Shown piece by piece: positions 10,146-58,578 of a DNA stretch of 64,000 bases. The stretch spans positions 31,124,001 to 31,188,000 of the forward strand of contig CM114271.1 in the NCBI GenBank assembly GCA_050084515.1, in the 5' to 3' direction. The DNA comes from Blasia pusilla. Lineage: Eukaryota. Under the pieces are notes generated by a model, which was given only the letters and a program-made list of their open reading frames with translations, made no database searches and was not told the origin of the DNA. Within the stretch, counting starts at the first letter, position 1, and the number at the start of each line of letters is the position of its first letter. The position numbers and the translations under genes were made by a program.

Positions 10146-11585
10146 TGTTAGCAGCTTAGTGTGCAATTGAAAAAACTTTGAAATCCTAAGGTTGGAGTTG
10201 ACAAAATATTCTAATTTTTTCTCTTGCTTTTACTCCTGACAAGATAAGAGAGGATAAACCTATTGCAAAAACTGATGTAATAACTAACAAAGAGTTGTAG
10301 GAAACTGCTAAAGAAGCATAACTGGTGGAAAACGGCTCTCACATTTACACACCACCATGGAGAACGAAATTTTGCAATGAGAGAATGAGTGGAGGCTGGT
10401 CCCCTTCTCAATTATATAGGGTATGTACAAGAAACCTTAACTGTAATCTTAACCATAGTCTCAAGTTAGACTAATTGTGATTAACTAACCATAGTTAAGA
10501 TAATCGCGCTTAACTGACTAACCAAGATTAAGCTTCCCTACTTCATGTGAGTACCAAATGTAGCAGTTCAGGTGTCTCATGAGCTTGACTGTAACTCAAT
10601 CTTGAATAATCCCCCTCAAGTTCATATCGATATCTCTAATGCTTAAATCATTTCTAAACATCTCAAACTTATCTCTAGACAATGTGATTGTAAAGATGTC
10701 AGCAATTTGTTGATCTGTACCTATATACACTAGATCAATTTCTCATGCAAACACTTTCTCTATGATAAAATGAATGTGCACCTCAACATGCTTTATAGGA
10801 GCATAAAACACAGGGTTATTAGCAAGCTTGATGCTACTAATATTTTCTGCATATATTACACTAGGTCTTAAGTTACTAATACCATATACCGCATAATCCT
10901 CCTCACAACATCAAGGTGAGATTTTCGAGGTGCTTGCATAAATTGGCTCACTAGGCCAACTGCATAGCTCAAATCTAGCCTAGTTATAGTCAAATAGATC
11001 AAAATTCTAACCATATGCATGTACATATTAGAATATGCAATCAACTCTCCTTCATATACTCTTAACTTCACACTCTGGTCCAACGGTGTAGAGATTGGCT
11101 TACAAGCCGTCATACCATATTTTGAAAGCATGTGAAGGGCATATTGAAGTTGTAGTAACCACATGCTCTCTCCAACCTTGATAAATTCAATACCAAGGAA
11201 GTACTTGAGTTCTCCTAAGTCTTTCATATCAAATTCTACTTGTAATTTTAGCTTGACTTGTTGTACCATATCCTCAGTACTCCCAATAATCAAGAGGTCG
11301 TCAACATACAACACAATGATAACCTTATGATTTTGTCCTCTCAAGACATATAAAGAGGAGTCAAAATCACATACCCTAAAACCCAACTCTTGTAGAACAT
11401 ATGTAATCTTGCCATACCAATCTCTTGGAGCTTGTTTGAGCACGTATAGAGCTTTCTTCAACGTGCATACGCGAAATGGAAACTCGAGATGCTCGTATCC
11501 AGGTGGTTAAGTCATATATACCTCCTCATATAGATCTCCATTCAAGAAGGCATTCTTGATGTCCATATGATGTAATCTCCACTTG
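10146..11585 (-). mobile_element. 5'-truncated Ty1/Copia remnant: RT, partial RNase H, PPT and probable 3' LTR (about 10146-10608)
   Basis: KKALYVLKQAPRDW, LYVDDLLIIG, DLGELKYFLGIE (10868-11461); KHVEV / DQQIADIFTI RNase H-like motifs near 10680-10800; PPT CTTGAGGGGG on the minus strand at 10611-10620. Confidence 0.85.
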
Positions 11586-13178
11586 GCTCAAGAGGTCGAG
11601 GAAGACTTGTTGAGGCCCCGAGAAACCTGAGAGAGTAGGTTTTCCCTTCGTTTCGGCTCATTTGGAGCCATATTTAAGAATTTACTATTTTAGGTAAGTA
11701 CCATTTTGAGTATATTATCGTGCGCCTACTCTCCTTGAACGTTAATCTTGTTGTTGCGGAAGCGTGGATTCAATAGGTCACGCTCTCAAGGCTAATCTGC
11801 ATCCAAACACGCACTATGGTTAGTCGGGTCTTGGATCAATCAGCGAGCTAACTTTCCGAGTTCTCGTCTCGGTCTCTCATCAAGCTTAACCTTCCTTGTT
11901 TCGCGGTTTATAACACAGGCAAGTCTCGAAAGACTTGGGACAGACTTTTTGGTCGGTTCAAGAACCTCAAACGGCATTTCGCGCTTGGTGGTTCCAACTG
12001 TCCGATGGACATCCAATGAGTCCCTAACCAAGACTCGCACAAAGTGAATCTCGGGTCCGAATCCAAGTGTGACGTACAAAGCCCACTCCCTTGGATCAGG
12101 TTTGGTTTTCGAGTTCCAACGCCAAACTCCCGTTTCGTCCCGTGCCTTTGAGACGCCATTTGGTGCTCAAAGTGGGGATTTGTATTCCAAGATATCTTGG
12201 AGAGACTCTTTCTTTACTAGTACTTGTGGGTATCTCCAGGGTTCCCTACATTTAGGGAAAAACACGCGGGCCTCTCCAATTGGCCCTCAACCCGATTGCT
12301 CTTACACTTGTTTTGGGCCAATATTTGAGTATGTACTAATACATTTGCTGAGATCTTTGGTGCGTTGGAAGCGTCTCAAGATAAGCTTTCCAACGCGCCC
12401 TTATATATATTATATATATATTATAACGCGCCCTTATTATTATTATATACGCTATATTATATATAGCGTATATATATAAACGCTAGTCGTGTTCCAAAAT
12501 TGGTTCTCACCTCTTTGGCAACCAATCTTCCAAGACTTAACTCATCTCAAGTCTTGGCTCATGTTTGGTCTAGGTTTCCTCGTCGCGACCACTAATGCAT
12601 GAAACACACAACTCTGTTCCGCATCTCGTCTCTTGGACTTTTTCAATAGACCTTTCCAAACGCCTCTCGAAAGCGCAAATATCGCAGCATGAGTCCACTT
12701 GAGTTCTGATGTTCCACTTGGCGTCTATTTTGTGTTGTTTGGTTATGAGGGTCGCGACATATATGGTCAACTTTCTATTTTTGGTAAGTGGCCCTTGACC
12801 TCCTACATCAGGTCAAAAGCTAAAGAGGTGACTTAGGAGCATATGTTACCATGGAGAGATAGCTTGAGAGCTCATTCTCTCTTTGTTGAACCTCTTGGCA
12901 CGAGGCGGCTGAGCTATGGTCCCTTGCCTTGTGAGTGTAACCCAAGCCTCTCACTAGGAGAGTGGGTTTGGTTTGACATTAAGAGAGACATGTGAGAGTG
13001 CACACATGTGAGAGATATGGTGTTATGAGAGAGATTTCACCTTATTTTTAATTGGAGATATTTTGGTACTTCTTGTCTCATTGTTTGGATGTCATGAGTT
13101 AGCATGGGATTGTGTGTGTTTGTGTGTGTGTTCGGTGACAACGATGTATGTTGTGTAGCGATGTGTATGCGCACGACA
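11586..13178 (+). mobile_element. LTR-like repeat related to the termini of the 25826-33573 element, interrupted by a solo LTR
   Basis: 3' end gatgtatgttgtgtagcgatgtgtatgcgcacgaca (to 13178) resembles the reverse complement of 25826-25860 (aatgtatgttggcagagatgtgtattcgcacgaca). The 5' end is uncertain. Confidence 0.55.
11716..12759 (-). mobile_element. Solo LTR of the chromovirus family at 41998-51677, reverse orientation
   Basis: Reverse complement aligns along its length with 50660-51677; perfect 5-bp TSD TATAT at 11711-11715 and 12760-12764. Confidence 0.9.
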
Positions 13179-25100: not shown

Positions 25101-25446
25101 GCACAGCCCCTGGAAAAAATTATATAAATAGAAACTAAGAAAACTAGGTAAAAAACCCTAGTTTCCCGGGTAGTGAGATAGTCGGGAGCCGTAGCGGTAG
25201 CGTATTCTCGTATGTCAAGTTATCTCCATGTCCGAGTTCCATCAAAGCTCTTTTGTGAGCGCACGGACGGACTACGCCACTTTGTATCTCCAAGATTTGT
25301 AATACATTTCAGTGATTTTTTCACATTGTGTTTTCTCACAGAGAGAGGTAAGGGAACTGTGGGTACTTTCAATAGTGATGAAAGATATTCTATATAGATA
25401 TCTGCCTTGATCTTGTAGAACATGAACATACAAAATATTCCTCCAT

Positions 25447-25773
25447 TGCACATGGACAAATTCCGTGGCCGTGGACTTATGTCCGTCCTCTAGACTGACA
25501 TGTCTGTGATGGCTAGGGTACCCGTACCTGAGCCCGCCGCATAGACCCGGGATGATGGAGCCCGCACCTATTGCATGGCCCGCCAAGGCCCGTAACCAGG
25601 CCAATATGACAGGCTTGGCCCTCATTGGGCGGGCTCACGGCCCGCTTGGGTTACGAGCCCTCAACCAGTGCAGCATGCAAGCTCCGTTAGTACGGGTCTA
25701 CGCGACGGGCTCTAAGCCGGCTCGTGTGTGGACCAGGCATGTCCGTGGACATGTTCGTTTCCGCGCAACCTTG
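25447..25773. mobile_element. Diverged relative of the hAT MITE family with a GC-rich interior
   Basis: Shares subterminal tgcacatggacaaa..ccgtggacttatgtcc and the right end GCAACCTTG. Left TIR appears clipped; flanks tcctccat / ccctctat match 6 of 8. Confidence 0.6.
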
Positions 25774-28700
25774 CCCTCTATGATTTAGAGGGATATTTTA
25801 TCGTTAATAATAATGATATATTGGATGTCGTGCGAATACACATCTCTGCCAACATACATTGGCTCTCGTGCACACACATGTCTAAGATCCATCTAGATAT
25901 GAATCCTAACATCTCTTCACTTGAACGACTAGACAACCCCAATATAAAGTTGAATACGCACCGTAAACTCTGATGAAATCTGCAATCAATCGCGCTTCAT
26001 CCAAACTACCATACTCATGATTCGGATATACAGTGGTGTAATAACAAAAGAAAGTATACACAAGGATTGCCAAAATGTTTGATCTTCCTTATTGATTGCT
26101 CCTAGCCCACTCTTCAGGAGAGAATCCACGCTCAATACATGCAAGCCGCATTGTATCATAGATCCCAACAAGGTTCCGCACTCCTAAGGAGATTAGCTCC
26201 AAATGAGCTTCACCCGAGGTATACCCCCCCTAGGCACCTCCATAGGTGACATATACACAGAGGTCACCTCCCTCCTAGCAGGTCACTACCAATATGTAGT
26301 ACACACATACTAGCTCCCTAACAACTACACATGTGGTCCCCTCATGAGACCAACTACCAACTAACCCACGACCCCATAGGTCCAAGTGGAGCCATATATG
26401 GTTGGGAAGGTCAACCTCTCCAAAGTTGTCACTCCTCATAAAGGGAAGGGTGACCTACACTCATAGGTCACCTCCTAAGAGCAATTCGCATATGACCTCT
26501 CAAAATAGGGTGGTACAAGACCCCTCTAAGGCCTCAATACTATCTCGCCCTATGCCTCATCTACCATGACAACTGTTGTGCGAATACACATCGCTGCCAA
26601 CAGACATCGGCTGTCAAGCACACACATGTCTAAGATCCATCTAGGTATGAATCCTAACATCTCTACACATGATCGACTAGACAACCCCAATCGCCTCCCT
26701 AGCTGGCGGTTAGGTCCCTCTAACTCTACATAGCCTACAAAACAAGTCTAAATGCTACGCACCTTTTCGGTGCTAAGTTCTAGATCATGAGGTCGGATGC
26801 TATGTCGCCCCATTGTTAGTCACCTTCCTGCAATCCATAACATCAAGAGTCATCTTGTAATCTACCTATGCCACCTATGTACATCTACGACAAAGTCAAC
26901 GTCCCTGAGGAACCAAGTCAAGAGGCGGCATCAAACACGATATATGCCATCCTCGAGAACACCCATCACAAACTAGCATCGTGGCTGTGCCTCTGGCAGA
27001 CCCACACAATATGCATCTCAAGCCTGCAAGAACAACTTCCAAGCTCGGATCAATCCTCCCATCTACGTTCGAAAGATGACATGGCGCACCATTACGCACA
27101 TGATCTTTCCAAACCCTTACGACCCTCTAAAACAAGGACTCTAGAAGGTAAAATCTCTCGCACTCGTAGAATAGTGTGTCTCGCCTTCACGTCCAATGTT
27201 GTCAACATTTTCTGCTATAGGTAGACATAATCTCCAAGATGGAATTGCCGAATCCTTTGTCAATAGCCTCCTCCACGCGTAGTTGCGTACCTTAGAGTAT
27301 CGCGATCCTCAGCGATAGCCAGGTTCTCAAACGACATAAGCATGACTCTTCAAAAGAGCTCAGCCCGTCAAAACAAGCTCGCATCCGTACGTCTGGATCG
27401 TCGAGGTCAAGTACCTCAACCACATCTCATCGAATCTACGATGGTAACTCTCGCTCTCTCTCATAGAGCAAGAAATACATTGAAAATGATGCCAAGGATG
27501 CCTGTCGACTGAAGAGGTAATCCATTGCCAACCACGCCAACTGTAGGTCCCAATCTCCCAAGTGTCCTCTCTGCAGTCCATACTTGCGCAATCCTCTCTA
27601 CACCATCCGCACAACTCTCTATGCCAAACCATCTGCCTGCGGATGATCTTGATAAGTCGTACGATGATCTATCAGTGCCTAATCACACAAGGCCTAAAAA
27701 GTCACCCCTAAACTCAGTACCCTGGTTTATCAACACCTCTGCTGGTACGCCGAAATGACTAAGCACTCTATCAAGAAATGCATAAGCCGCTCCCTCACTC
27801 AACCTATCCGGCAACACTACCAACTCAATCCACTTGGAGAAGTGCTCCACCATGAACAACACGTATTGACTATGGCGTCCCATCAATGGTAAAGGCCCTG
27901 CAAAGTCTATACTCCAACGATACCCTAATCCCATGATTGATAAAGGATGCAAGTGTGGTGTCGGAGCATTAAAAAATGCCCGCACTCTATCACATACAAT
28001 GCATCTCGCTACAAACTACTAACCATCAGTCTATATACCATGCCACCAATATTGAATCTGAATCAAGCTATACATACAGTTGACTCCGAAATTCCCTAAC
28101 TCCTCGTGAGCATATCTCACGACTTGTGCTCGTTGCAAAGGATGCGGTATCATCCGCACTCATCCATCCTCCCAAACTTGAAGCATATGCATCCCCTCCC
28201 ACCTAAACCAGCCTCCTGGCTCATTGTAGGACTCAATCCTGCTCTCTAGTACCACTGTGCTTGCTAAGACACTAGTGCCCATGTACTCCAAGACCATCTC
28301 ATCGTCATGGATGTCTCCAGTCCATGTTAATTGCTCACTAGCATCTGGATCTAAGGACTCACCATCCAACCTCCCTCTTGGAGTGAATGCCTCTTGCTGA
28401 CTTGACATGGCCAACCGACACAAAAAGACGGATGCGTACCAACTTGGAACCATCTCCTCATCACTCTCACCATGCCACCACACTCCTATCGCATCGCTCT
28501 CGCTCGTGCATGGGTTACGGATTAACCTGTCCGCATCTTGGTTCAGATGTCTTGGGCGATGGACAACCTGAAAATCATATTCCTACAACAGGAGTGACCA
28601 TCTAGCAAGCTTCCGTATAAGCTTGTCAGACTCCATCAACCATCTGAGTGGCAGATGATCAGTGATGAGCATGAAAGGGTTCCCGAACAAATAACATCTG

Positions 28701-29661
28701 AAATAGGTCACTCCCTACATTGCAACTAAGCACTCCCCCTCATAAGAATTATACTTCGCCTCCGCAAAGTTGTTCAAGCGGCTCGCATATGCCACTATAA
28801 ACTTCTTCCCCTCATCATCTCTCTAAGTGAGCACCACTCCTAACCCCAACATATTCCAGTCCATATGTAATTGGAACGGACGACAATACATAGGTCTCCT
28901 AAAAAATGGGCGAAGACGTCAACCTGTCCTTGAGCTCTTGAATGCTCGCTCCTGATCATCTCCAAAAAACCACTCCTAGTCCAATCTAGTCAGCAAAGTC
29001 AGTGCCTTTGCAATCGCACTAAAGCCCTTCATATACCGTTGGTAGTAGTTCGCCAATCCCATGAAAGCTCGAACTCGACTCACATCTGTAGGGCGGGGAA
29101 TGCGCGCTATGGCCTCCACCTTTGTTGGTTGAACTCCAATACCCCTTGGATAAACGGTGTGTCCAAGGTACTCAATCTGGTCATGGAAGAACCTACACTT
29201 GTCTGGATATAAATTCAGCCCATGTAACTGCAATTGTCAAAACACCTCCTCCATATGTCTCTCATGCTCCTCAACGGTAGCACTGAAGAAAATAATGTCA
29301 TCGATGTAACATCTCGCATAATTCAAACTAGCCAAAATCCCATCCATAACTTGCTGAAAGCCCGCAAGGCATTCTTCAACCCAAACGGTAAGAATCGCCA
29401 CTGGTACAAACAATCCTTCCCGAAAGGATCTATCCCCCAAAATGTTGTCTTCTCCCTGTCCTCCACTCGGATGGTCAACTGATGATAGCCAGCATTGAGA
29501 TCCAAACAATTTAAGATCCTTGCATGCCCCACCGCATCAAAGATCTCCTCGGGAGTAGGCATAGTATAGCGATCGGCCTTCGTATGCCGATTAATAGGAT
29601 GATAATCCCCACAAATCCGCCTATCGGCCCATTGGCCATGTATATCCTTCTTTGTCGGCAT

Positions 29662-30925
29662 AAAGAGTTAGTGTGTAAACTCCTTCCTCGTTAAGTGTTA
29701 GATAGAGTTTTATTAGTATTAAGTAAATTAGCTTAAGAAAAGGAAATTCCCATGTTTAAACCTCTTTATGGTGCCTCTTTTATGCGCGCCCAACTTTAGG
29801 AAAAGAGGTAATAAATAAAAGATGACTTTATAAAAGTAAAGTAGTGAGGTTGGTGTTTTAATGAAAAGAAAAAATAGTCTTGGTTGGTGACTAGGTTAGT
29901 TGGGGTAATTTGGAAAATATCATGTGGGTAAAAGAGGATATTTTGGAAGAGATAAGAGGAAATCTACTTATGTCAAAATATGATTGGTTAAGCCTTGAGA
30001 GGAAGCCATGTGGCACAAGATAAGATTAGCTCTATTTCGTATTCTTGGGGATCCCTTGGGAGTATATAAAGAGGAGGGACATTCAAGGGTTCATCACATT
30101 CTATTCCACATCTTGAGTCTCTCGTGTCATTCTTGAGTGTATGGCTTTGGGATTGCTTGCTCTTCCAATGAGAGTGGATCACCCCTCTTGGAGAGTAACT
30201 TGACCATGGTCTATTCTTTGAGAGGTTTCTAGAGTGTGGTGTGTGTGTGGAGATGAGAGGCTTGTCACCTTAGAGGATTTTAGTCATACTAAAATAGTGA
30301 ATGTTTTGGCTTGTTACTTTCCCAATCAGAGTGGATTACGCCTCTTGGGGAAATAGTTCCGTCAAAACCCATTCTTGAGGAGAGTAGAGAATGTCTATCA
30401 AGCACGAATAGGGGTGGAGCACGAGTTGTGCTCAAATTTCCTTTCCTCAATCCATACCATATCAAGATACTATTTGTAGATAGGCACTAGTTCAGTCGTT
30501 ATTTAGTTTATCACTTTGGGGAGGCGTTCATGAACCAGGTCATGCAATCTCCAACTCCGGTGATCCTTCCTATCGTCACATATGGAAGGACATGGGATTG
30601 TACTTTGTATGTCCTTATATAGTAATCCATGGATATCAATAGGCCTGCTCAAGTAGGGTTTAACACTAGTTGTGCTATCTTCCTCGTATACAAGCGTAAA
30701 ATAGTTTATAGGGATTTTATAGTTAGGAATTTCGGGGTCCGATGTTACGAAGAAGTGATCGCCTCAGCACTTCCATTTGTGATACCTGTCATGAGAGAAT
30801 GGAGAGTATACACAATAATTTTATATTGAAAAAGGAGAACTTCTCAGAGAGTTTATCTTGCATCGACCACGTTTGCCGCAGCTAAAAGACCTACCCTTAC
30901 TTAAAGAAAGGCTCTCGACACGACA
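29662..30925. mobile_element. About 1.27-kb solo-LTR-like insertion, left end clipped, inside the pol gene of the 25826-33573 element
   Basis: Aligns along its length with 46270-47544 and ends CGACACGACA. It separates pol segments ..PIFRRSYRYSDMERALI..QDLANA (30926-31025) and MPTKKD (from 29661). Confidence 0.85.
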
Positions 30926-31266
30926 GCGTTAGCCAAGTCTTGACTCATACTGTGAATCAAGGCTCGCTCCATGTCGGAATACCTGTAGGATCGTCGGAAG
31001 ATAGGAGTATCACTATCCAACTCGCGCACTTGATAGAAAGAGCCGCGCGCACTTGAACAAGCCGCGAAATAGGAACCACATTTCCAATTCTTCCTCCATC
31101 CTCTCGCCGTGCTTGAAGAAGAGCCGCACCGCACTTGAGAATCCACGGAATGGGAACTCGATTTCCGATTCTTCTCTCCTTCCTCTGAACGCCGTGTTGA
31201 AACTGAGAGTATCGCCGATCTCACTTCTTGGGTCCGCACCAAAGGTAATCAGAACTTCAATTCTGA

Positions 31267-31585
31267 TTGCCTCCTTCCTATCCTCTCCACCTTCTTATAG
31301 AGAAGACCCAAAAGTGAGGAGCGGAATGGGAACTAGAGTTCCAATTGCCTGCTTCCTATCCTCTCCACCTTCCTATAGAGAAGACCCATAAGTGAGGAGC
31401 GGAATGGAAACTAGAGTTCCGATTTCCACCTTCCTATCCTCTCCACCTTCCTGTAGAGAAGACCCACAAATGAGGAGCAGAATGGGAACTGAAGTTCCAA
31501 TTGCCTCCTTCCTATCCTCTCCACCTTCCTATAGAGAAGACCCACAAGTGAGGAGCGGAATGGGAACTGAAGTTCCAATTGCCTG
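31267..31585. repeat. Minisatellite, 4 x 78 bp
   Basis: Unit ttgcctccttcctatcctctccaccttcctatagagaagaccca..gtgaggagcggaatgggaact..agttccaa starts at 31267, 31345, 31423 and 31501. Confidence 0.92.
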
Positions 31586-34500
31586 CTCACTTCACTTTCC
31601 TACGCCGCCGCACTATGCCACGCCGTAGTAGTCAACTACAGTTGAGACGCTCCAATGTTCTCCAACTGAGACAGAATGGCACTTGAGTTCCAAATCCTCC
31701 TTACTTCCTTATCACTTCCATGCCAATCTCTGCTACGCCGTCGAGATGACCACCATGCAGTTAAACCACGCCTTGGCTCAACTATGCTTGAAATGGAACT
31801 TGAGTTCCAAATCCCTTTTGTAGCTCCTTGTCACCCTTGCCGCCCCGTGCCATGCCACGCCCTTAAGATGACTCAGCCCTTGTTGTTGAATCAGAACTTC
31901 AATTCTGATTCCCACTTTGCCGCTCTGCTCAGAATTGCCTCTTGGGAGGGCTCTGCTGAATCAAAACTTAAGTTCTCATGCCTCCCTCAACTCTACCAAC
32001 TCTGTGGCTAACAGTCCTAACTACACTCCACTAACGGCTCCAAACTAGTGCCACTAGTTCCTCCACTAGCGGCACCCAAACCTTTCTCAACCTCTCACCA
32101 AGGGAAAGCTATACCACGTAGCCTCTTCCTTGCCTTTCGTGAACCATGTTCATCAACAAGGGAAATCATAACTTCAGTTCCGATTGAATGAAGAGCTCTC
32201 CTCCTCCTCACTCCTTCTCACTTTTCCACAAAAGGGCTATCAGAACTTAAGTTCTGATGCCTTGCACAGCAGCTCCAACGCTACTCTCTTGCCCTTTCAC
32301 ACTGATGATCCGCTCATCTCAAGGAATCTATGTGGCTATGGGAAATCTTTTTGGAATATTTCTTAAATGAACTCCGTTTCCGGTCTCGATTTCAGAGTTG
32401 GATTCAAATTTTTGCGATCTTTCCAATTGCAAATTCAGCTCTCACAAAATCCCGCACAATCAAACACCATTGTGCCCTCCTTACATTTGCTTCTTGCTTG
32501 ATTCTCCCTTTGCCCAAAATTCATCCAATTTGATCCTTAATCAAGCATACCTCACTCAAAATTAGCAACGAAGTGCCCACGTACTTGCTGACTGGCCCAC
32601 CCTCAATCATGTCACAATTGACATTGATTTCCTCACCAAAATTGTCTCAAGAATTCCGTTCCTACAATCTGATCCTTAATTGCTCCACTCTTGAGCAACT
32701 CCACCAAGATTGAGAAGCCGCCCCCCTTCAAATCCTGTCAAATTTGTCGCATTGCACAGATTTCTCAATTCTGAACATCTCACTTCGATTTTAGCAATTC
32801 TTCTGCCCCATCTCCTCCCACATGGTCAGGATACACTAGCTTGCAATTCCTGCAAACCCCACAGCACCACAATTGTTCTCTACATCACATATTGAGTCCC
32901 ACGTTCTCTTCTATTGAGAACCAGTGTGCATATCCTTAGGATATAAAGTTTAATACGCATAGTAAACTCTGATGAAATCTGCAATCGACCGTGCTTCATC
33001 CAAATAGCCATACTCATGATTCGGATACACACTGGTGTAACAACAAAAGAAAGTATACACAAGGATTCCCAAAATATGTGATCTTCCTTATTGATCGCTC
33101 CTAGTCCACTCTTCAAGAGAGAATCCAGGCTTAATACATGCAAACTACAGTGTATCACAAATCCCAACAAGGGTCTGCAATCCTAAGGAGATGAGCTCCA
33201 AATGAGTTTCATCCAAGATATATCCTCCTAAGCACCTCCATAGGTTACCTGTACACACAAGTCACCTCCCTCCTAGTAGGTCACTACCAATCTATAGTAC
33301 ACACATATATACTAGCTCCCCAACAACTACACATATGGTCCCCTCATGAGACCAACTACCAACTAACCCACGACCCCATAGATCCAAGTGGAGTCATACA
33401 AAGGTAGGAAGGTCAACCTCTCCAAGGTTGCCATTCCTCATAAAGGGAAGGGTGACCTACACTCGTAGGTCACTTCCTAAGAGCAGGTCACATATGACCT
33501 CTCAAAATAGGGGAGTGCAAGACCCCTTTAAGGCCTCGATACTATCTCGCCCTATGCCTCATCTATCATGACATAAGAAAGTAGACACATCAATTATAGG
33601 GGTTTAGACATTAGTGATAATTGTAGTGAGATTAGAGATTTGATGTTTGATACCCTTTCTCTTTATCATGATTCAAGTGTTGAATATGATAATGGGCGTA
33701 ATTAGCGGATAGAGTATATATTGTGTATATTTATCATTGATATTCATACTCAAATAAAAAATTTGATGAAAAATATATTATATTCTCTACAAATTATGAA
33801 AACTCGCCATTTTTTTGTTTTTTTGTTTTATATATATATATGAAATTCTTTAAATATTATGACTTGTTGCAGACTTTGCAAGTTATGGCAAAGAAGAATA
33901 TGAGAAAAAAATATTTTATAAACCATGAGGCAACTTGAAGATAGTGATGGTGAGTAGTATGTTCCTCTTGGTGAAGAAGCACTTGAGCCTATGCCAAAAA
34001 ATCTTGAGTGAAGTGAAGTCTTACAAGTTTTGAGTGATGGCTTTGTTCCAACACATGTTTTTTATGAGGAGCTAGATAATAAGTACATAATTGTACCAAT
34101 TAAGGATGTAAGATGAGTGTTTGATGAGAGTGTATGAAGAGTTCTATCCACACTTATAGTAGAACCTATTAATTAATGTTTTATTATTGAGTTATCCCAA
34201 GGTAAGGAGGAAGAAGGAGATCCAGGTTCGACTAATGATTGTAATCCTTCCTTTGAGCTCATATCCTCTGGCCTTTGTGCAAGACGTTTGAGGTTTTTGG
34301 GTCTTGGATTCTTATGAGTGCTTATTTTTATGACTCTGATGACTCAAGTGAAATAAGTATTGCTGTGTCTCACTTCATAGTAGATTCATTGCCTTTCTGA
34401 AATATGAAATCTAAGAAACTTACCATTTTTTTATTCATAGCAATGTAATGGTCAAGTTCATATGTTCTTTGATTCCAAATATGTATGTTTATATTTATTT

Positions 34501-39474: not shown

Positions 39475-41997
39475 CTAAGTAAGTGCTGCAGAATAGATAG
39501 CAATACAGAATTTGGAGACACTTGGAACTACCTGACCAAGCACTAGGAAGTCATTAGGCTCCAATGATCCTAATGTGTGTAGTTGATCCTTGCTCTTCAC
39601 CCTGGATAGCATAACATATACTAATCCCACAGCAAAAATTGGCTGAACAACCAGTAAAAAAGGACCTTCCACGGTAGAACACTGACTCTTGTGGGCAGTC
39701 ATGGCATAACCTAATATAAGTGGAAATGATATCTTGATATATTTACGATTCGAGTCATACCTCAGGGTAGAGAATTGGTTCTACCTATCTTGATAGCATG
39801 TCGATTGGATTGAAGAGTAACAACAATATAAACTAACTCATTGTCTTCATGAATAAGATCAGACACTGTACCAAGAGATCCATTGGCTGCCTCGCACTTC
39901 AAGTTAACATTAGATGTAATCATAACTGGACAATATAGTGCGACGAATGGTAGTTGGTGAAAAAACTCATCATTTAACCAAATATCAAATTCTGGTTGTG
40001 AGGGAGCGTCAGAAATAACATTAACTTTGATAATAGAGGCATCTCCAAAAATCCTTCTAAGTGATAGGAGATTGAATATGGCAATGTCATCACAATGAGT
40101 ACAAATGATTGTTGTGCTAGAAGTGATGAAATCTATAGCTTCATTCTCATACACAAAGCAGGATTGTAGATTGTCATCAATCTGGGCCTATGTTGGAAGA
40201 GCAGATCTGATAGAAGTTAGGAACTGATTTTAAAGAGGATCACTTGAATGGCATACAGGTGTAACCAATTCAAAGGAGAATATATTTTCCAAGAAAATAG
40301 AGGAAGTAGTATGACAGCCATGGCATACATTTTAAACTTTATGGTTGCAAACAGGTGGAAGCTGGCAGAGGTTGCCTACAAGGATGAGCAGCTCCCCACC
40401 AAGCAAATTCTGGCTGCTGCATTTTATGACTTTATTTATCCGCATCACTATAATTTGCAATAGCCTAGTTGTCACCATTGAGAACTCATCAACTACAATT
40501 ACTTGGGCAGCTTTAAGTCTCATGTAAGGATCTGAAGTAGCGTGCATAGTTGGCATATCACCATGGATGGGAATGCTGAAAGCATATTGAACTGTAAGAG
40601 CTTCTATATGAAGACGAACAACATCAATACCTGTTGTTGTAGTGAGTAGAGGTGACATTCCCTTAGATTTCCACTAATCATACATGAATTTCACAAAGAA
40701 AAACTTACCACAACCAGGTCCTCCTTTGAGGAGGATTAAATAAGATGTAAGAGATGTGATGTGTGCAAAGAGGAGTGTATGTTCAAGGTTGAGGATTGCA
40801 ATATCTAGCTGATCGGGCACATCCTCTTCATATGGATGGATAGAGCCACTATGCATAGTTTCAAAATTGATGAAGGAACTTATATCCATGTCAAGCTCAG
40901 GCTGCTCAATGCTAGTTGCTTTAGCAATTATTTCTGCCTCGTAAACTTGACTCCACAAGTTTTTGACTGCGTGTTCTTTACTGAGCTTATGGACGTCAAG
41001 CATATCATGAATTAATTTCCTATGAATGCACTCATGTATATGTGTCCAATTCTGGGCCTGGAATGATGTGAGGGTTTTCTCAGATCTAAACGGACATTCT
41101 CAAGTAGCACTAAATAAAAGAATTCATTCCACTCATAAGGTGGATGGAATTCAGTGAATTTAACAAGACGATTATTCCTACTAAAATTATTACCTAAGTG
41201 ATCCAATCCAAAAAACTTTATCACTTGGATTCTTTGGATAGGCTTCCAAGATCTCGTAACTATTCCAAAAAGCAAAGGATGATAGTTCTTCAAGAGCAAC
41301 TGGCCTATTTGCGTAGAAAGTTGTGGGATGAATGCATGGTATAGATGCGGATTTGTAGCGATAAGTTCTCCTTGAGGGAGGGTTGCAATCAACATAGTGA
41401 ATGGCTTGCGACCTATATATAATTGGAATCTAAAGAGAGGTTTGTGCAGCTTTTGTAGATGAGATAGCTCTGTTTAGAACAACCCCGAAGACAAGACGTA
41501 GCTTAATGTCATCTAATCCACCAAGTCCGAGAGATTTAGCTGATTTTGTATCAATATCTAAAGACCCAGTGGGCTCTGACTTCAAAGCATATTAGAGAAG
41601 ATAAAAGGACCAGTCAACATTGGTTACCCTTTGGATGTTCATGTGGGCTCCCGAGAGCAGGAGCACTAGGGGATGGTATGGAATGACATTACGGTGCTCA
41701 GCTGAGGGCCTAAAGTAACTCCACTTCATTGAACGCGGATCAATAAATGGATGCAGATTAGGATTCACATGAGCAGAGAATCCTAGGTAACAATATGGTT
41801 TTTGGGACCGCTTTCTCACTATGCAAACTCCTTCCTTGCTTCGGTGCAATTGCTTCTGAAGCACTAGGCTTAAGAGTTCATCATTTGGGCTGAGGGTAGA
41901 CCTAGAATGCAGGAGATGCAACTTGGGGTCAACACATGGGATATATGAACATATTTCTGATGAAATTCGGTCAACATCATCTGGATGGAGACACAAA
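39475..41997 (-). pseudogene. Helitron-like RepHel, C-terminal part: end of the HUH Rep domain plus PIF1-family helicase
   Basis: NVIPYHP..AHMNIQ..YLL*YALK (Rep motif 3, about 41580-41700); GGPGCGK (40704-40724); VIVVDEFSMV; LVGNLCQLPPV; NGSLG; TAHKSQ; YVMLSRVKS. Multiple stops and frameshifts. Confidence 0.9.
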
Positions 41998-42955
41998 TGT
42001 TGCGACCCTCATAACCAAACAACACCAAATAGGCGCCAAGCGAAACATCAGAACTCAAAGGAACTCACGCTGCGAGGTTTGCGCTTTGGAGAGGCGTTTG
42101 GAAAAGTCTCTTGGAAAAGTCTAAGAGACGAAACGCAGAACAAAGTTGTGCGTTTCATGCGTTAGTGGTCGTAACCAGAAAACCTAGACCAAACGCGAGC
42201 CAAGATTTGAGATGAGTTGAGTCTTGGGAGGTTGGTTGCCAAAGAGGTGAGAACCAGTTTGGAACACGACTAGCGTTTGGGAGAATCTGACTGCGTTTAG
42301 GACCATAACGTTGAGCGTTCGGGACAAGTAAGGGCGCGTTAGAAAGCTGATCTTGAGATGCTTTCGACGCACCAAAATCTCAGCAAACGCATAAGTACAG
42401 GCTGAGATATTGGCCGAAAACGATTGAGAGAGCAATCGGGTTGAGGGCCAATTGGAGAGGCCCGGGTGTCTTTCCCTAAATGTAGGCGGGCCCCGGAGAT
42501 CCCCAGAAGTACTAGTAAAGGAGGACTCTCTCCGAGATGTCTCGGGAAATGAATCCCCACTTTGGGCGCCAAACGGCGTTTCAGGGGCACGGGATGGAAC
42601 GGGAGTTTGGCGTTGGAACTCGAAACCCAAACCTGATCCAAGGGAGTGGACTTTGTACGCCACACTTGGATTCCAACCCGAGATTCACTTCGTGCGAATC
42701 TTGGTGAGGAACTCATTGGATGTCTATCGAACAGTTGGAACCGCTAGGCGCGAAACGTTGTTTCAGGTTCTTGAACCGACCAGAAAGTCTGTCCCAAGTC
42801 TTTTGAGATTTGCCCGTGTTGTAAATCGCGAAACTAGGAAGGTTGAGCTTGATGAGAGTCCGAGACGAGAACTCGGAAAGTAATCCCCCTGATTGATCCA
42901 AGACCCGACTAATCGAAGTGCGTGTGTGGATGCAGATGAGCATTGAGAGCGTGAC

Positions 42956-43957
42956 TGTCGCGACCTTCATGACCAAACAAGTGCCAAGCGGAACATCGGA
43001 ACATTAGCGGGCTCACGCTTAGATGGTTTGCGCGTTGGAGTTGTCTCAAAGAGGAGACAAGAGACGAGACGCGAGCGAGAAGTCGCGTTTCAGATGTGAT
43101 GGTCGCGACTGAGAAACCTGGACCAAACGCGGAATGAGACTTGAAAGAAGTCGAGTCTAGGAAGTGGGTTGCCAAAGGAAAGATCCGGATTTGGAACGCC
43201 ACTTGTGTTTGAGAGTTTCCAACTGTATTTATGGCCATAACTTTTAGCACCGAGATGCGTTTGGAGCAAATAAGAGTGCGTTGGAAAGCTTATGAAGAGC
43301 CGGTTCAAACACACCAAAGATCGCTGCAAACGCATAAGCAGCGGCCGAGATAAGACCCGAAAACGACTGTAAGTGGAGTCGGGTTGAGGGCCACAATGAA
43401 GGGCCCGAACCTCTTTTCCCAAAGGGGAGGGGTTATTGGAGAACCCCATAAGTACTAGTAAGGGGGAAGGTCTCCAAGAGTGCTTGGAACCCAAACCCCA
43501 CTTTGGGCGCCGCGGGGCGGCTCAAGGGCATGGAACGGAACGCGAGTTTGGGCGTTGGGTTGGAAAACCTGCACCAAGTCCATTGAGGCGATTTTAGACA
43601 TCCCTCTTGGATTTCACGCCGCGACTCAATTACTTGGGTCTCGGTTCGGAACTCACACGAGGACCGTTGAACAGTTGGGATCGCTAGGCGTGCAAGTGCC
43701 GTTTCAGATCCCTGGACTAACCAGGAAGTCTGTTCCAAGTCTTGAAGGACTTGCCATGTGTTGGGAGCTAGGAACTAAGGAAGGTTGAGCTTGATGAGAC
43801 GCCGAGTTTAGGACTCGGTGGGTTGGAACGCCGGTTGGCCAAACCCGACTAACGAGAGTGCGTGTTTGGGTGCAGATCGGCGATGAGTTCGTGACCTACT
43901 GAACGCACGCTTCAGCAACACTAAAGATTGACGTTCAAGGAGAGTAGGGGCGCGACA
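42956..43957 (+). mobile_element. Solo LTR of a related, diverged family nested in the 5' LTR
   Basis: TGTCGCG...CGCGACA; perfect 5-bp TSD GTGAC at 42951-42955 and 43958-43962. Removing it restores colinearity with the 3' LTR. Confidence 0.92.
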
Positions 43958-44026
43958 GTGACCTACTGAATGCACGCTTCCGCAACAAACAAGATTAACG
44001 TTCAAGGAGAGTAGGCACACAACACG

Positions 44027-44038
44027 TGGTATCAGAGC
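44027..44038 (+). promoter_or_regulatory. Primer-binding site complementary to the 3' end of initiator tRNA-Met
   Basis: TGGTATCAGAGC, 2 nt after the CA end of the 5' LTR. Confidence 0.9.
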
Positions 44039-44174
44039 TTATCCTTGATGAGTGTGAACTTGGGGTTGTTGAAGATCTGGACGTTTGGGAAGAACTCAAG
44101 GTAGCCGGAAGACCGCGACGTTGAGGAGGAACGTAAGAGTTGAGGAGGAGATCTGAGAAAGCAAAGACTCGCAA

Positions 44175-47100
44175 ATGGGGACCAAAGGCGAAGAACCGAG
44201 GAAACCGCGAGTCAAAGCAAAAAAGCCGAGAGACGAATCAATGACGGACCGAGAGCCAGAGGTGGAATTTGCGACTCCCAAAGTGCCGAGTCCTAGACAT
44301 GAGGATGTTCCAACCAAAAATCTTTCCGCGGGACCTTCAGTTCCAAACTTAAACCATCCGGTCTTTTATATCCAAATGATGGGATGGATGAAGGTGATGG
44401 CGGACCAGATGGCCGAACAGAGCAAAGTGATATCAGAATTCAAGTCAAATGGAGCCTCTAGTTCCGGCAAGAAGCTTTGTAAGACTAATTTGCCAACGCC
44501 ATTCACCGGAATGGGGTGTTCTCGGAAAGTGAGCGAGTTTTTAAAGGAACTCGAACTTTATCTCGAAGCGCAAAAGGCAGACAAACAAGACAAAGTGACT
44601 GTAGAGGTCACGTTTCTGAAGAATCATGCTCTCCATTGGTGGACGGCTCACCGTAAAGAACATCTAGGTCATGGGAAAACGTTGAGTTGGGAAGATTTCA
44701 AGGAGTTGATTGGGAACCGATTCACTCCGGAATATCAGGAGTATCGCGATGGCATGGAGGTGGTGAGGTTGCGCCAGAGTGGATCCCTTGGCGCTTATGT
44801 GCGAGAGTTTAGTGCACTTTCCACGGATGAACATACAAAAAAGGTGATCTTCCTAAGTGGACTCAAACCGAGTGCCGAAAAGGCCCTCTTTTGTATGCCT
44901 CACATCCCATAGACGTGCGCGGATCTTCTGAGACTAGCAGAGCGGATTGGGGACGATGAAGTCCAACACCCGAAACCCTTTGAGCCAAAACGTTTTTGTA
45001 AGTTACCGAAAAACAAAGGGACATCCAAGAGGGTTTGGAATTGGGGTGAGCGCGACCACGTAGGGTTTCTTGCCCCAGCAGCAAAACGAGTGGAACTCAA
45101 CGCAAAGCCAAAAGGGCCGCCGTTTACGAAGTCAACGAATGCCAAAGTGATTTGCTACAACTGTGGTGAACTGTGTGGACATATGGCTAAGGAATGTGTT
45201 AGGCCCAAGGTTAGTAAACTGAGTATGATTACGTTTGCCGCTAAGCATTTATCGGAGGGAGATCTAGATACATCTCTACAAGTCACCAAGAGAACGCCCA
45301 ATTTGGTTTACCTAGGATCCAGGATCGCTAATCGCGATGTAATGTTGCTCGTTGATACTGGTGCTTCGCACTCATTCTTGAGTCCGAGAATCGTGAAAAC
45401 GTTGGGATTACCAACCACCAAGGTGGATGAACCCATTAGGGTAGGATTCGCGGGAGGCAAGTCCCACCAGACTTCAGATCTGGTTTTAGGGCTAGTTGTG
45501 AGATGCGGAGTATTTGAGTTGAAGGAGAATTTCACAGTTTGCGACATGGACGGTATCGACGGAGTCTTGGGGAACACATTCTTGGATGCGTATGAGGTGG
45601 AATTGAGGCGAAGACTTTTGAGGTTGAGCATCTTGGTTAACGGCAAACGGACGGACGTCATATTGGTTTGCGAGGTGCCTAGGAAGACGGAGTTGGTGAA
45701 TGCCATCACAAGGACGAGTTTGGCCGAGTTAGAGGAAGGATTCCTTTGCTTGATGAGACAAGTAGAGGATGATGCACGCACGAGATGTAGAGATCAGAAC
45801 TCAGCTTCAAGGGGAATCCCTGAAACACTCAAAAGAGTTGTGAAAGAATTTGGAGATGTGTTGACTAAGGAGCTTCCGACTGAGTTGCCACCACATAGGG
45901 CGGTTGATCATAAGATTGAGGTGATACCATGATCTCAACCACCTTCAAAAGCACCATATAGGTTGAATCAAGAGGAACTTGCTGAGTTGAAGAAACAATT
46001 GGGTGAACTCCTAGAGAGGGGTTACATCCGAACAAGCAAGTCACCTTATGGGGCGCCCGTTCTCTTTGTAAAGAAGAAGGATGGGAAGTTGAGACTCTGT
46101 GTTGATTATCGGGCGTTGAATAAAGTGAATGTAAGGAACAACTATCCTCTACCAAGGATGGATGACCTCTTTGATCAATTTTTGGGTTCCAAGTATTTCA
46201 GCCGGATTGACCTGAAATCAGTATATTATCAGATTCGGATTGCCGAAGCGGATGTAGAGAAGACTGCGTTGTCGTATAGTAAAATCAACTAGTGTGTAAA
46301 CTCCTTCGTCATTAAGTGTTAGATAGAGTTTCATTAGTATTAAGTAAATTGGCTTAGAAAAAGGAGATTCTTATGTTTAAATCTCTTTATGGTGCCTCTT
46401 TTATGCGGGCCCAACTTTAGGAAAAGGAGGTAATAAATAAAAGATGACTTTATAAAAGTAAAGTAGTTGCTTTAATGAAAAGCAAAAGTAGTCTTGGTTG
46501 GTGGCTAGGTTAGTTGGGGTAATTTGGAAAATATCATGTGGGTAAAAGAGGATATTTTGGAAGAGATAAGAGGAAATCTACTTGTGTCAAAATGTGATTG
46601 GCTAAGCCTTGAGAGGAAGCCATGTGGCACAAGATAAGATAAGCTCTATTTCGTACTCTTGTGGATCCCTTGTGAGTATATAAAGAGGAGGGACCTTTAA
46701 GGGTTCATCACCTTCTATTCCACATCTTGAGTCTTTCGTGTCTCTCTTGAGTGTATGGCTTTGGGATTACTTGCTCTTCCAATGAGAGTGGATCACCCCT
46801 CTTGGGAGAGTAACTTGACCATGGTCTATTGTTCGAGAGATTTCTAGAGTGGTGCGTGTGTGTGTGGGAATGAGAGGTTTGTCACAGAGAGGAGTTTAGT
46901 CATACTAAAATAGCGGATGTTTTTTGTTACTTCCCCAATGAGAGTGGATTACCCTCTTGGGAGAATAACTCCGCCAAAACCCATTCTTGAGGAGAGTAGA
47001 GAATGTCTCCAAGCATGGATAGGGGGTGGAGCACGAGCCATTTGTGCCCGACTTTCCTTTCCTCAATCCTTACCATGTCAAGGTACTCTTTGTAGATAGG

Positions 47101-57453: not shown

Positions 57454-58232
57454 TCTTGGTGAGTGTTTTTATGTTTGAGACATGTTGGATTCAATATTTT
57501 TGTGGATTGTGCTTAGAGTGTACTTGACACTGTTGAATTGTGAGTAGGTTAGTGGGAGGGATTAGGTTAGGGGGATGATAGATTGGTTGATTGAGCTTCT
57601 TGCTCAATTAGGGGTTGAATCCCCCTCTATCATATCTAAGGACAACATGTTGGATATTAACTTAACTTGGTATTTTTCTTTTCTTTCAAGGCCTTATTTA
57701 TTTCAAGTGATTACTTTACTTAAAGAATTTTAGGGGTACCAAAAATGAAAAATGACTCCTTTAAAGTACATAAGGGTGAGAAAAAAAGATTCACTTATTA
57801 GGGGGTGTAGACCCTAAAACGTCGTAGGTGATGTAGAGCCTTTCATATAGTGGCCCCCTCGAGCCCCCGGTGCAATCCTCCACAACCCTCTGTTCCTCAC
57901 TACTCTTGAGCTCCCAGCCTACAATCCCCGTGCACTATCTCCCGCCACAGCGAGTCGACTCAGAATTGGACCCAAACTTGGGGCCACATCAACACGTTTC
58001 AAAATGCCAAGTCACAATGGACCATGTTCCACTTCAGCATTGTCAAAATTGCCCAGTCATTCTCCTTAGCAGCAAGGGGGGAGGTGGACTTCAACTTATT
58101 TACTTACTAAGAAAGGGTTTGTCTATGGAAAAGCAACATCGATCAATGGCTCTCACCAATCCAGCATATGCGATGAGCTCTAACCCACACTTTTCAATAA
58201 ACTCTAAGGTAAAGAAAATCCCTAGATGACAA

Positions 58233-58578
58233 CCCACACATGAAATAAAAAAATTGAAAACCCTAAAGAAGGTCCCCATTGAGCCCCCATCTTGCCCCCT
58301 CCACCCTCAACAGGGTCCAAAAATCAGGAAACTTTACCCATGGGAGCACCATAACACCAGAAACACAAGAGAATAGAAAAAACTTGAAATAACTCCCCAC
58401 ACATGAAATAAAAAAATTGAAAACCCTAAAGAAGGTCCCCATTGAGCCCCCATCTTGCCCCCTCCACCCTCAACAGGGTCCAAAAATCAGGAAACTTTAC
58501 CCATGGGAGCACCATAACATCAGAAACACAAGAGAATAGAAAAAACTTGAAATAACTCCCCACACATGAAATAAAAAA
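58233..58578. repeat. Tandem duplication, 2 x 163 bp, nearly identical
   Basis: acacatgaaataaaaaa starts at 58236, 58399 and 58562; one substitution noticed (accag / atcag). Confidence 0.92.

Follow-up and report, generated by a model that had tools for sequence, protein, structure and literature searches.

In a clade of Gypsy retroelements with DNA methyltransferase (DNMT) and PHD finger domains, the ends set by reverse transcription and the ends used by the integrase appear to be offset by one block in every element examined, while the mark of a DDE integrase is retained. In the plan taught for LTR retrotransposons and retroviruses, the ends that arise from reverse transcription are the integrase ends. 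The clade came to our attention through a copy in Blasia pusilla, lying in a window of 64 kb (the whole stretch of DNA that was analysed; contig CM114271.1). Our preferred explanation, to which we assign a probability of roughly 0.6, is that self-primed reverse transcription would yield a product bounded by A-nn-B units, that integration would proceed from a palindrome inside this unit, and that a permuted insertion would result.

Read along the minus strand, the window copy has the order B'-internal region-A'-gt-B-A (Table 1). Both B blocks begin with TGTCATG and both A blocks end in ..ACA; after B' the sequence continues with cctaaggat.. instead of A, and blastn found no third A or B block within the 64 kb window. 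Judged by length and identity, the A/A' and B/B' repeats cannot be due to chance. Rather than two complete and identical LTRs around the internal region, the 5' repeat is missing its A, and an extra A comes after the 3' unit. This is the arrangement of split direct repeats, A1-ORFs-B1-A2-B2, as defined for PAT-type elements in the part of the source at hand (PMC4157794). The preliminary description of this DNA had given the same four blocks, which repeat search and blastn reproduced to the nucleotide, and its likening of them to PAT and Ngaro repeats is borne out by the arrangement. Besides, the junction of B' with the flank is covered by an exact-match contig (X1 record 7) from an independent run, possibly one of the assembly's own sample.

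Table 1. Features of the retroelement copy in the window, in minus-strand order (positions in the window)
Feature	Position	Strand	Evidence or remark
B', 5' repeat: truncated LTR unit (3' part of U3, R, U5)	32941..33573	-	88.5% identity to B over 634 columns (repeat search, blastn); TGTCATG at 33573
Stretch in B' complementary to the first bases after B'; predicted transcript 5' end	33182..33195	-	11/14 complementary
Predicted self-primer binding site CCTAAGGATATGCA, directly after B'	32927..32940	-	complementarity to the stretch in B'
5' internal region; no recognisable gag, protease or methyltransferase	31024..32926	-	no Pfam match in three minus frames; no tblastn match upstream of 31023
78-bp tandem repeats inside the 5' internal region	31252-31642		repeat search
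RT N-terminal remnant, separated from the remaining RT by the nested repeat	30856..31023	-	tblastn, Marchantia P0008 residues 741-792, 46% identity
Nested unrelated 1.26-kb repeat, foreign to the element	29669..30929	+	90.7% identity to 46290-47548, same orientation; high read depth
Reverse transcriptase, with frameshift and stop codons	29237..29667	-	RVT_1, tblastn
RNase H	28577..28963	-	RT_RNaseH E 4.1e-24, RT_RNaseH_2 E 4.1e-15
Integrase zinc-binding domain H2C2	27980..28135	-	PF17921, E 4.8e-10
DDE integrase core rve	27707..27922	-	PF00665, 34.2 bits (cut-off 32.6) in the ORF alone; 27.7 bits in read-through
PHD finger, C-terminal end of pol	26881..27015	-	PF00628, E 1.7e-07 and 6.8e-07
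Polypurine tract block ccagctagggaggcg, directly upstream of A'	26692..26706	-	sequence
A', 118-bp start of the complete internal LTR unit, from the 5' part of U3; final bases ..CACAACA	26574..26691	-	90.7% identity to A over 118 columns (repeat search, blastn)
Junction palindrome ..CACAACA gt TGTCATG.., proposed integrase site	26565..26580	-	each half is identical to one end of the inserted element
B, remainder of the complete LTR unit (3' part of U3, R, U5)	25942..26571	-	repeat search, blastn
A, terminal 118-bp block, 2-nt overlap (AT) with the end of B; ..CACGACA closes the 3' end of the element	25826..25943	-	repeat search, blastn

The layout is very probably lineage-wide and DDE-integrated. 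Among 80 metagenome loci of relatives, which form two sequence groups plus one GC-rich locus and whose counts are not all independent, 37 have recognisable A/B blocks and 43 do not. The full order B-internal-A-nn-B-A occurs in 10 of these 37 loci, corresponding to 9 distinct elements, and 9 further loci carry the A-B-A 3' part, with the upstream part outside their sequence. Four loci consist of B..A only and would fit either secondary recombination between A blocks or primary cleavage at both palindromes. None of the 37 has two plain LTRs, an A block upstream of the genes or the opposite permutation B-A-B..A; the last was likewise absent from all 17 loci with an upstream B. The preliminary description, which took the layout not to be damage to a single copy, had named complete LTR pairs elsewhere as its refutation, and the relatives thus uphold it. 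Within elements, the identities of the B blocks (79-91%) and of the A blocks (84-95%) co-vary. In Blasia pusilla itself, contigs of other copies, ~85% identical, span B to A' (X1 record 1, X2 record 9), a further one spans the junction of A' with the internal region (X2 record 10), and the B-A joint is carried by at least four contig variants; the read depth of A (80 + 164) is about that of B. Since no contig among the other Blasia pusilla copies examined spans the junction of B' with the internal region (32941), support for the 5' half of the layout comes from the metagenome relatives.

Predicted signals for reverse transcription lie before, in and after the A-nn-B unit. A polypurine run precedes the first A in 33/35 cases. 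In addition, 1122 reads of the wider family match positions 26687-26735 and diverge below 26687, so the LTR of the wider family would start where A' starts. No TGG-type tRNA primer binding site follows B'. The first bases after B' can instead pair with a stretch inside B', the 8 bases nearest the boundary perfectly, at a level reached by 5 of 200 shuffles, and a TATA-like GATATAT lies ~30 nt upstream of that stretch. The window copy therefore combines a polypurine tract at the start of its 3' LTR with a binding site after its 5' LTR that is self-primer-like and not of the tRNA type. Relatives show the arrangement more clearly: the complementarity rises to 13/14 in L013 and L016, with a TATA box ~30 nt upstream, and amounts to at least 11/14 in 10 of 18 cases, with TATAAAAG ~30 nt upstream. 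Self-priming has been described for Tf1/Sushi elements and predicted for plant Tcn1, according to the text at hand (PMC6317226). There, as here, the predicted transcript start, ~30 nt past a TATA box, can pair with a site directly after the 5' repeat. Tf1/Sushi and Tcn1, however, possess a chromodomain and a pair of ordinary LTRs, and the window copy has a PHD finger and, by Pfam, no chromodomain. The earlier suggestion of tRNA-independent priming looks correct in this light. Given the polypurine tract before the first A and the TATA box and Tf1-type self-primer arrangement in and after B, LTR-type reverse transcription would quite probably yield a self-primed A-nn-B unit, with U3 predicted to comprise A, nn and the first part of B, and R-U5 the remainder of B.

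Instead of the tips of this unit, the inserted DNA has as its ends the two halves of a palindrome that lies within U3. In the window copy, these ends read TGTCATG..ACGACA and are thus of the TG..CA type. The junction palindrome is present in 23/23 elements examined, nn being purine-pyrimidine in 21 of them, and the relatives share the consensus ..CAYRAYA nn TGTCATG.. with a mostly purine-pyrimidine nn. Relatives are flanked by 4-bp target duplications, perfect in 5/13 and matching at three of four positions in another 4/13, with none recognisable in the remaining 4; at control offsets, a perfect duplication was seen in 5/1040 cases (0.5%) and a three-of-four match in 74/1040 (7%). Duplications of this kind are a hallmark of DDE integrases. 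At the window copy itself, the flanking CTTA and TCCA agree at 1/4 positions, which makes no convincing target-site duplication. Moreover, the B-A joint consists of the tip of B and the tip of A, with a variation of -3 to +1 nt across elements (0 to 3 nt).

Because the inserted ends lie at the CA-RY-TG palindrome inside the A-nn-B unit, we infer that inserted copies are circular permutations of the reverse transcription product. Reverse transcription would produce ordinary DNA with an A-nn-B LTR on each side; the integrase would bypass the tips and cleave the CA-nn-TG palindrome of the 5' LTR, where two nicks 2 nt apart would create both recessed CA-3'OH ends at once. The outer tips, at which the 3' B ends and the 5' A begins, may be joined before this cleavage, through a template switch or as in a 2-LTR circle, or else by host end-joining once it has taken place, and the insertion would then be a circular permutation of the product. 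No other permutation would leave a promoter-bearing B upstream together with a full U3-R downstream, so that this one alone could found a lineage. As formulated, this route of cleavage plus tip joining is tentative and less probable than not. That the palindrome of the 5' LTR and not that of the 3' LTR would be opened may have a kinetic reason, at which we can guess: the 5' LTR could become double-stranded first. A simple circle model is incomplete, since either palindrome of a symmetrical 2-LTR circle should be open to cleavage, whereas none of the 17 loci with an upstream B displays the other product.

An unlikely alternative is completion in the manner of DIRS/PAT elements, in which an RNA without the outer ends would use the A-nn-B junction as template or splint for both termini, and the DDE integrase would insert B..A-B-A normally. 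The layout formally equals the split direct repeats of PAT and Ngaro, at the internal junction exactly the two terminal sequences adjoin, priming does not look tRNA-based, and the single permutation would be accounted for. The position of the signals argues against it, however: with the polypurine tract before A, not before B, and the self-primer site after B, not after A, standard priming would give A-nn-B LTRs whose tips do not coincide with the inserted ends. Besides, the B-A joint shows small gains and losses like those of end joining, although a templated end should be exact. For elements with a DDE integrase, such a route is not known in any of its steps. The preliminary description had suggested that the ends are regenerated from an internal junction template; this is a conceivable mechanism, but polypurine tract, TATA box and self-primer point to ordinary LTR-type reverse transcription of an A-nn-B unit and, after it, to unusually chosen ends for integration.

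Far less probable is that the true LTR is A-B-A with a terminal duplication, both 5' A blocks having been lost, or that host recombination generated the layout from canonical copies. A-B and B-A junctions are indeed both common in the family, but the read depth of A resembles that of B instead of being twofold, A is never found upstream of the genes in the 37 relatives, and every single element would need to have undergone two exact deletions. Still less probable is that a normal Gypsy copy with two LTRs was rearranged once or misassembled. The window copy is damaged, with stops, a nested repeat, missing gag, protease and DNMT and no clear target duplication; its junctions, however, are common to other copies of the same species, 9 distinct metagenome elements share its layout and 9 more its 3' part, with no plain two-LTR locus among 37, and the layout is in print for Klebsormidium, which together refute this reading.

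That record is KnitGypsy-Dnmt3 of Klebsormidium nitens, for which the legend to Fig. 4c gives a DIRS-like repeat arrangement with Gypsy domains (de Mendoza et al. 2018; PMC5890265). On the question of an earlier description, which had been left undecided, the answer is therefore that the layout itself was already known from a 2018 figure legend. The portions of that paper at hand give no account of primer binding site, polypurine tract, ends, target duplications or mechanism for KnitGypsy-Dnmt3. Likewise, an A-nn-B unit with polypurine tract, TATA box and Tf1-like self-primer, ends at a CA-RY-TG palindrome and 4-bp duplications were not found in the published text at hand. By its legend, KnitGypsy-Dnmt3 resembles the window copy in Gypsy domain order, DDE integrase and DIRS-like repeats, and the nearest protein relatives of the window copy carry its DNA methyltransferase in pol, shared domains that suggest kinship. 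In contrast, methyltransferase, protease and gag are all missing from the window copy, which resides in a different host and has its nearest named relative in Marchantia.

The minus strand of the window copy encodes RVT_1, RT_RNaseH, Integrase_H2C2, rve and PHD (Pfam, on ORFs and three-frame read-through), which is the Ty3/Gypsy pol order RT-RNase H-integrase with a DDE core; the Gypsy order, DDE integrase and TG..CA ends originally read from the letters are hence confirmed. The PHD finger has the same position in P0003, P0005 and P0006. Among the best 9 longer homologues (P0002-P0010), PF00145 occurs in 9/9 and PF00628 in 7/9, and the domain order of the relatives is PR-DNMT-RT-RH-IN-PHD. In a pol tree of 29 rows, hand-picked from 39 matches, the window copy is sister to the Marchantia protein P0008 (support 100/98), and both belong to a larger clade (100/98) in which each of the 13 rows has DNMT, PHD or both. 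Judging by this placement, its PHD finger and its DIRS/PAT-like repeats, the window copy belongs to the Gypsy (Ty3) clade with a DNA methyltransferase and a C-terminal PHD finger, although it lacks a methyltransferase domain of its own. That it is a tyrosine-recombinase retroelement (DIRS/PAT/Ngaro) whose integrase had been misread has next to no probability and is refuted: reverse transcriptases of the DIRS group are Gypsy-like and the repeat layout is that of the group, but rve and Integrase_H2C2 are present, Pfam lists no tyrosine recombinase family in the three minus frames of the window copy or in P0003, P0005, P0006 and P0008, the copy falls inside a Gypsy clade with DDE integrases, and 4-bp target duplications occur in relatives.

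PAT, TOC1, kangaroo and Ngaro have the same formal layout, and a two-LTR circle cut open within one of its LTRs would describe both them and the present lineage. Those elements carry a tyrosine recombinase and no DDE integrase and, to our knowledge, make no target duplication, whereas the present lineage has rve and H2C2, TG..CA ends and 4-bp duplications. In HIV-1 and foamy virus, the palindrome of the 2-LTR junction has 4 nt between CA and TG and arises only when LTR tips are joined; in the present lineage it is part of U3 itself, with CA and TG 2 nt apart. The integrases of these viruses cleave this palindromic LTR-LTR junction of 2-LTR circles, according to the sections at hand (PMC1905944, PMC1180852), and the present lineage is similar in that a palindrome made of two element ends would receive an internal, putative DDE cut. 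Possibly, though at odds short of even, a whole clade of DDE-integrase LTR elements in streptophyte algae and bryophyte-type hosts has shifted its integrase sites from the tips to a U3 palindrome. If so, these elements would use a junction-type substrate, insert a circularly permuted genome and converge on the layout of tyrosine-recombinase retroelements; they would also provide a natural example of retroviral integration by the 'circle junction' route, an idea long abandoned. This raises the testable question of whether an integrase of the retroviral type can routinely act from an internal palindrome or junction instead of free tips. In practical terms, programs that search for LTRs as two equal copies will overlook such elements or call them wrongly in bryophyte, fern and algal genomes, and LTR-divergence dating of permuted elements needs the correct repeat pairs.

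The value of these data lies in the clade-wide anatomy and not in the window locus, a dead and gutted copy. Neither gag nor aspartic protease was detected in it (Pfam, tblastn from relatives), which looks like loss because P0005 and P0006 have both. For a C-5 DNA methyltransferase between protease and RT, tblastn and Pfam likewise gave nothing upstream of 31023; where the relatives have this domain, the window copy has 1.9 kb of unrelated sequence, and the read depth over the 5' internal region (40-90; X11) resembles that of the LTR blocks. By its ~11% repeat divergence, its many stops, the loss of gag, protease and methyltransferase and the repeat nested in its RT, the window copy is an old, dead and degenerate Gypsy element. 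Neither these losses nor the nested repeat had been noticed in the preliminary description. The sequence at 46290-47548, related to that nested repeat, splits the RT of a second element in the window.

The split-repeat arrangement of the studied Blasia element is real, and the layout is a property of a clade of Gypsy elements that carry a DNA methyltransferase (DNMT) and a PHD finger. Read on the minus strand, the window copy runs B' - internal region - A' - gt - B - A. A repeat search and a blastn comparison of the region with the whole window returned the same blocks, which bears out the preliminary description as to the blocks, their order, their ends and the lack of a TGG-type primer-binding site (PBS). 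B' and B share the start TGTCATG, and A' and A share the end ..ACA. B' is directly followed by cctaaggatatgc.., with no TGG-type PBS, while ..ccagctagggaggcg directly precedes A'. At the B-A joint, the last two bases of B (AT) are also the first two of A. The blastn comparison found no additional A or B block elsewhere in the 64-kb window.

Features of the studied element and of its neighbourhood in the window
Feature	Positions	Strand	Remark
B'	32941-33573	minus	88.5% identical to B over 634 columns
B	25942-26571	minus
A'	26574-26691	minus	90.7% identical to A over 118 columns
A	25826-25943	minus
Polypurine tract (PPT) block	26687-26735
RT N-terminal remnant	31023-30856	minus	start of tblastn match to relatives
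PHD finger	26890	minus	end of tblastn match to relatives
1.26-kb repeat, copy in studied element	29669-30929	plus	90.7% identical to the other copy
1.26-kb repeat, copy in chromovirus	46290-47548	plus
Chromovirus	~41992-51700	plus
Inverted matches to chromovirus LTR	11751-12765
Second PHD-finger Gypsy member	60883-61213, 63405-63995		two matches
Tandem array	58215-60576
3'-side flank	25400-25686
Opposite flank	33723-34000

The window copy itself is a dead, gutted member of its clade. When three minus-strand frames were read through with X at stops and searched with Pfam, RVT_1, RT_RNaseH, Integrase_H2C2 and rve fell into one frame and a PHD finger into another, and the rve ORF exceeded the Pfam cut-off even alone (34.2 versus 32.6 bits). 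Tyrosine recombinase, gag and protease gave no Pfam match in these frames, which contain many stops (106 in the first). The reverse transcriptase (RT) is split by a 1.26-kb sequence whose second copy within the window, in the same orientation (blastn), interrupts the RT of a plus-strand chromovirus; this sequence is therefore a separate repeat nested in two elements. With relatives as tblastn queries, the window copy was matched only from the N-terminal part of RT, which the nested repeat separates from the rest of the domain, to the PHD finger. The 1.9 kb between B' and this remnant matched no relative in the same search and contains 78-bp tandem repeats.

Searched with the read-through RT-RNase H-integrase protein of the window copy, the databases returned 39 longer proteins at E <= 1e-10. 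The best nine of these (37-51% identity), one of them from Marchantia polymorpha, all contain a C-5 DNA methyltransferase domain and in seven cases a PHD finger, in the order protease - methyltransferase - RT - RNase H - integrase - PHD. A tree of 29 rows, chosen from the 39 hits, pairs the window copy with the Marchantia protein as sisters (support 100/98), and both lie inside a clade of 13 rows (100/98), all with DNMT and/or PHD. A search of viral contigs with the integrase ORF found no relative. Against the nearest metagenome loci, whole-element blastn aligned pol alone (67-69%); the LTR blocks are comparable by their end motifs only. KnitGypsy-Dnmt3 of Klebsormidium is an element of this DNMT-bearing Gypsy kind (de Mendoza et al. 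2018, PMC5890265); according to the Fig. 4c legend of that paper, its repeats are ordered as in DIRS while its domains are of Gypsy type. In a full-text search, its name appeared in that paper only. Neither PHD nor methyltransferase comes up in the available text of the REXdb survey of plant LTR elements (PMC6317226). No description of the clade's anatomy beyond PMC5890265 was found in the open-access main texts searched. The kind of element has been noted in print; its detailed anatomy and the mechanistic question have, as far as these searches reach, not been described.

Other copies in the same species share the 3'-side junctions of the window copy. Reads or contigs from one WGS run, one RNA run and the Logan contigs of two further runs were compared with 25400-34000 at >=80% likeness. 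Among the best-supported matches, the B-A', A'-internal and B-A junctions were all bridged in other copies: B-A' by contigs ~85% identical to the window copy in both contig sets (X1 record 1, 26502-26659; X2 record 9, 26443-26695), A'-internal by a further contig of ~85% identity (X2 record 10, 26621-26978), and B-A by at least four contig variants (joints 26672>25932, in three variants, and 26686>32970). The junction of B' with its flank is covered by an exact contig (X1 record 7). None of the best-supported matches bears on the B'-internal junction at 32941 in other copies, on an empty-site joint or on loose ends at the tips of the element. Single-position read depth was 80 and 164 for A/A', and ~55-141 for B plus 26-57 for B'; summed, these depths give an A:B ratio close to 1:1 and not 2:1. 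Besides, 1122 reads of a wider family agree with the PPT block alone and lose their match immediately below it, which indicates that the LTRs of the wider family begin where A' begins. RNA reads are in sense orientation across pol and A' and drop off through B.

We then turn to the 80 metagenome loci gathered with an alignment of 12 clade proteins. Self-comparison revealed the window copy's layout in many of them, and A and B blocks from ten elements, searched in all 80, were recognised in 37; the other 43 lack a recognisable block, and all layout counts rest on the 37.

Block layouts in the 37 metagenome loci with recognisable A or B blocks
Layout	Loci	Remark
B..A-B-A, full layout	10	9 distinct elements, L042 and L043 being the same one
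A-B-A 3' of genes	9	upstream part not covered
B..A-B, then contig end	2
B..A-B without final A	1
A-B only	1
B..A only	4
A only	8
B only	1
Partial B, then A	1

None of these 37 loci has an A block upstream of the genes. The preliminary description had named intact copies with two complete AB LTRs as the observation that would make this layout a one-off; two plain LTRs occurred in 0/37 relatives. The opposite permutation, B-A-B..A, was likewise absent (0/37 loci, and 0/17 with an upstream B). Identities of the B/B and A/A pairs go together within elements (e.g. 86.8/86.9, 90.7/92.3 and 80.6/87.5), so both pairs were alike at insertion. Among the 43 loci, the order PPT - short A - CGCGACA gc TGTCAGG can be made out by eye in the GC-rich L005. 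A strict palindrome pattern had no match in 18 loci that lack A/B matches, and a looser scan also failed to pick up L005. Four loci (L002, L010, L060, L061) read B - genes - A, the second B or A being absent, and in two of these loci the 4-bp duplication is perfect (TACA, TTTT). Here, either the inner unit was lost by A/A recombination or both palindromes were cut before insertion. Three contigs have identical ends (L005, 127 nt, 1-127 and 10419-10545; L025, 99 nt; L039, 127 nt); these 'circular' contigs may represent young elements in which the assembler collapsed identical repeats, or real circles.

The relatives also share a detailed anatomy. A run of at least six purines directly precedes the first A in 33/35 elements, and 23/23 elements have ..CAYRAYA nn TGTCATG.. 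where A meets B, with a 2-nt spacer (gc 8, ac 6, at 4, gt 3, tc 1, ga 1) that is purine-pyrimidine in 21. Each half of this junction palindrome equals one end of the inserted element. With the right end set by alignment to the internal A, the four bases outside both ends formed a perfect 4-bp target duplication in 5/13 elements, agreed at three of four bases in 4/13 and at fewer in 4/13, as against 5 perfect matches and 74 with at least three of four at control offsets (n=1040); in the window copy, one of the four bases matches. The B-A joint consists of exactly the B end plus the A start in 4/10 elements, falls 1-3 nt short in 6/10, and has one extra base in further loci. In 10/18 elements, at least 11 of the 14 bases that follow the 5' B can pair with a stretch within B (13/14 in L013 and L016), and a TATAAAAG box lies ~30 nt upstream of this stretch. 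The stretch is 129-138 nt away from the B end in one of the groups; in the group that comes closest to the window copy the distance is 174 nt, and in the window copy 255 nt. Tf1-type self-priming involves an arrangement such as that at the 5' B boundary of the clade elements. The likeness would lie in a site after the 5' repeat that is complementary to the predicted transcript start inside B, an arrangement described for Tf1-type self-priming in the available text of PMC6317226.

From the positions of the PPT, the TATA box and the self-primer site, the ordinary LTR unit would be A-nn-B, in which the putative U3 comprises A, nn and the beginning of B, and the putative R-U5 the remaining B. Inserted copies of the relatives end at the palindrome inside U3, with 4-bp duplications at their ends, and not at the limits of the A-nn-B unit, which argues that the inserted copy is a circular permutation of a two-LTR reverse-transcription product. 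We infer a route in which this product would open at the 5'-LTR palindrome and its outer tips would be joined together. If CA-nn-TG were cut behind each CA, the result would be two recessed CA-3'OH ends, each with a 2-nt overhang. Recessed CA-3'OH ends are the form of the integrase substrate. Cleavage of the palindromic LTR-LTR junction in 2-LTR circles by retroviral integrases has been reported (PMC1905944, PMC1180852), and a B-A joint that varies by a few nucleotides is consistent with end joining or a template switch.

The preliminary description had proposed instead that the ends are regenerated with an internal junction as template. This DIRS-like alternative would account for the single orientation; it fits the PPT and primer-site positions less well than cleavage and tip joining. 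Random opening of a symmetrical 2-LTR circle was dropped: it predicts the opposite permutation equally often, and none was seen in the 17 loci with an upstream B. Under the cleavage route, some factor must favour the 5' palindrome, and timing would be our guess. An LTR of A-B-A composition was dropped in view of the A:B depth ratio and the absence of A upstream of genes in the 37 loci. A misread tyrosine-recombinase element was dismissed, given rve and Integrase_H2C2 and no Pfam match to a recombinase in the three minus-strand frames, and an insertion nested in a pair of tandem LTRs was likewise dropped.

As for the neighbouring sequences, the 1.26-kb repeat, which sits in the RT of two unrelated Gypsy elements, is high-copy (X11 depth ~1000-1350), and RNA reads map to its own strand. 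Its sequence begins with TAGTGTGTAAAC and terminates in ..CGACACGACAGCGT; neither a terminal inverted repeat nor a target duplication was seen at its two window copies. The chromovirus encodes gag, protease, RT, RNase H, integrase, an SH3-like domain and a chromodomain between ordinary LTRs ~96% identical and spaced 8660 apart, and the inverted matches to its LTR may represent a solo LTR or another copy. A second PHD-finger Gypsy member, which shares ~72% identity with the studied element over the integrase and PHD parts, has ~2.2 kb between its two matches (versus 208 bp in the studied copy), extends past the window end and is disrupted at its 3' end after 60883; a PPT motif search there found no second site. 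Just downstream of it lies a satellite-like tandem array (period ~348 bp, six copies, plus a 163-bp doublet). The opposite flank of the studied element has a depth of ~2.5. The 3'-side flank is itself repeated (X11 depth ~50 at >=80% likeness), and the studied element may therefore sit inside another repeat.
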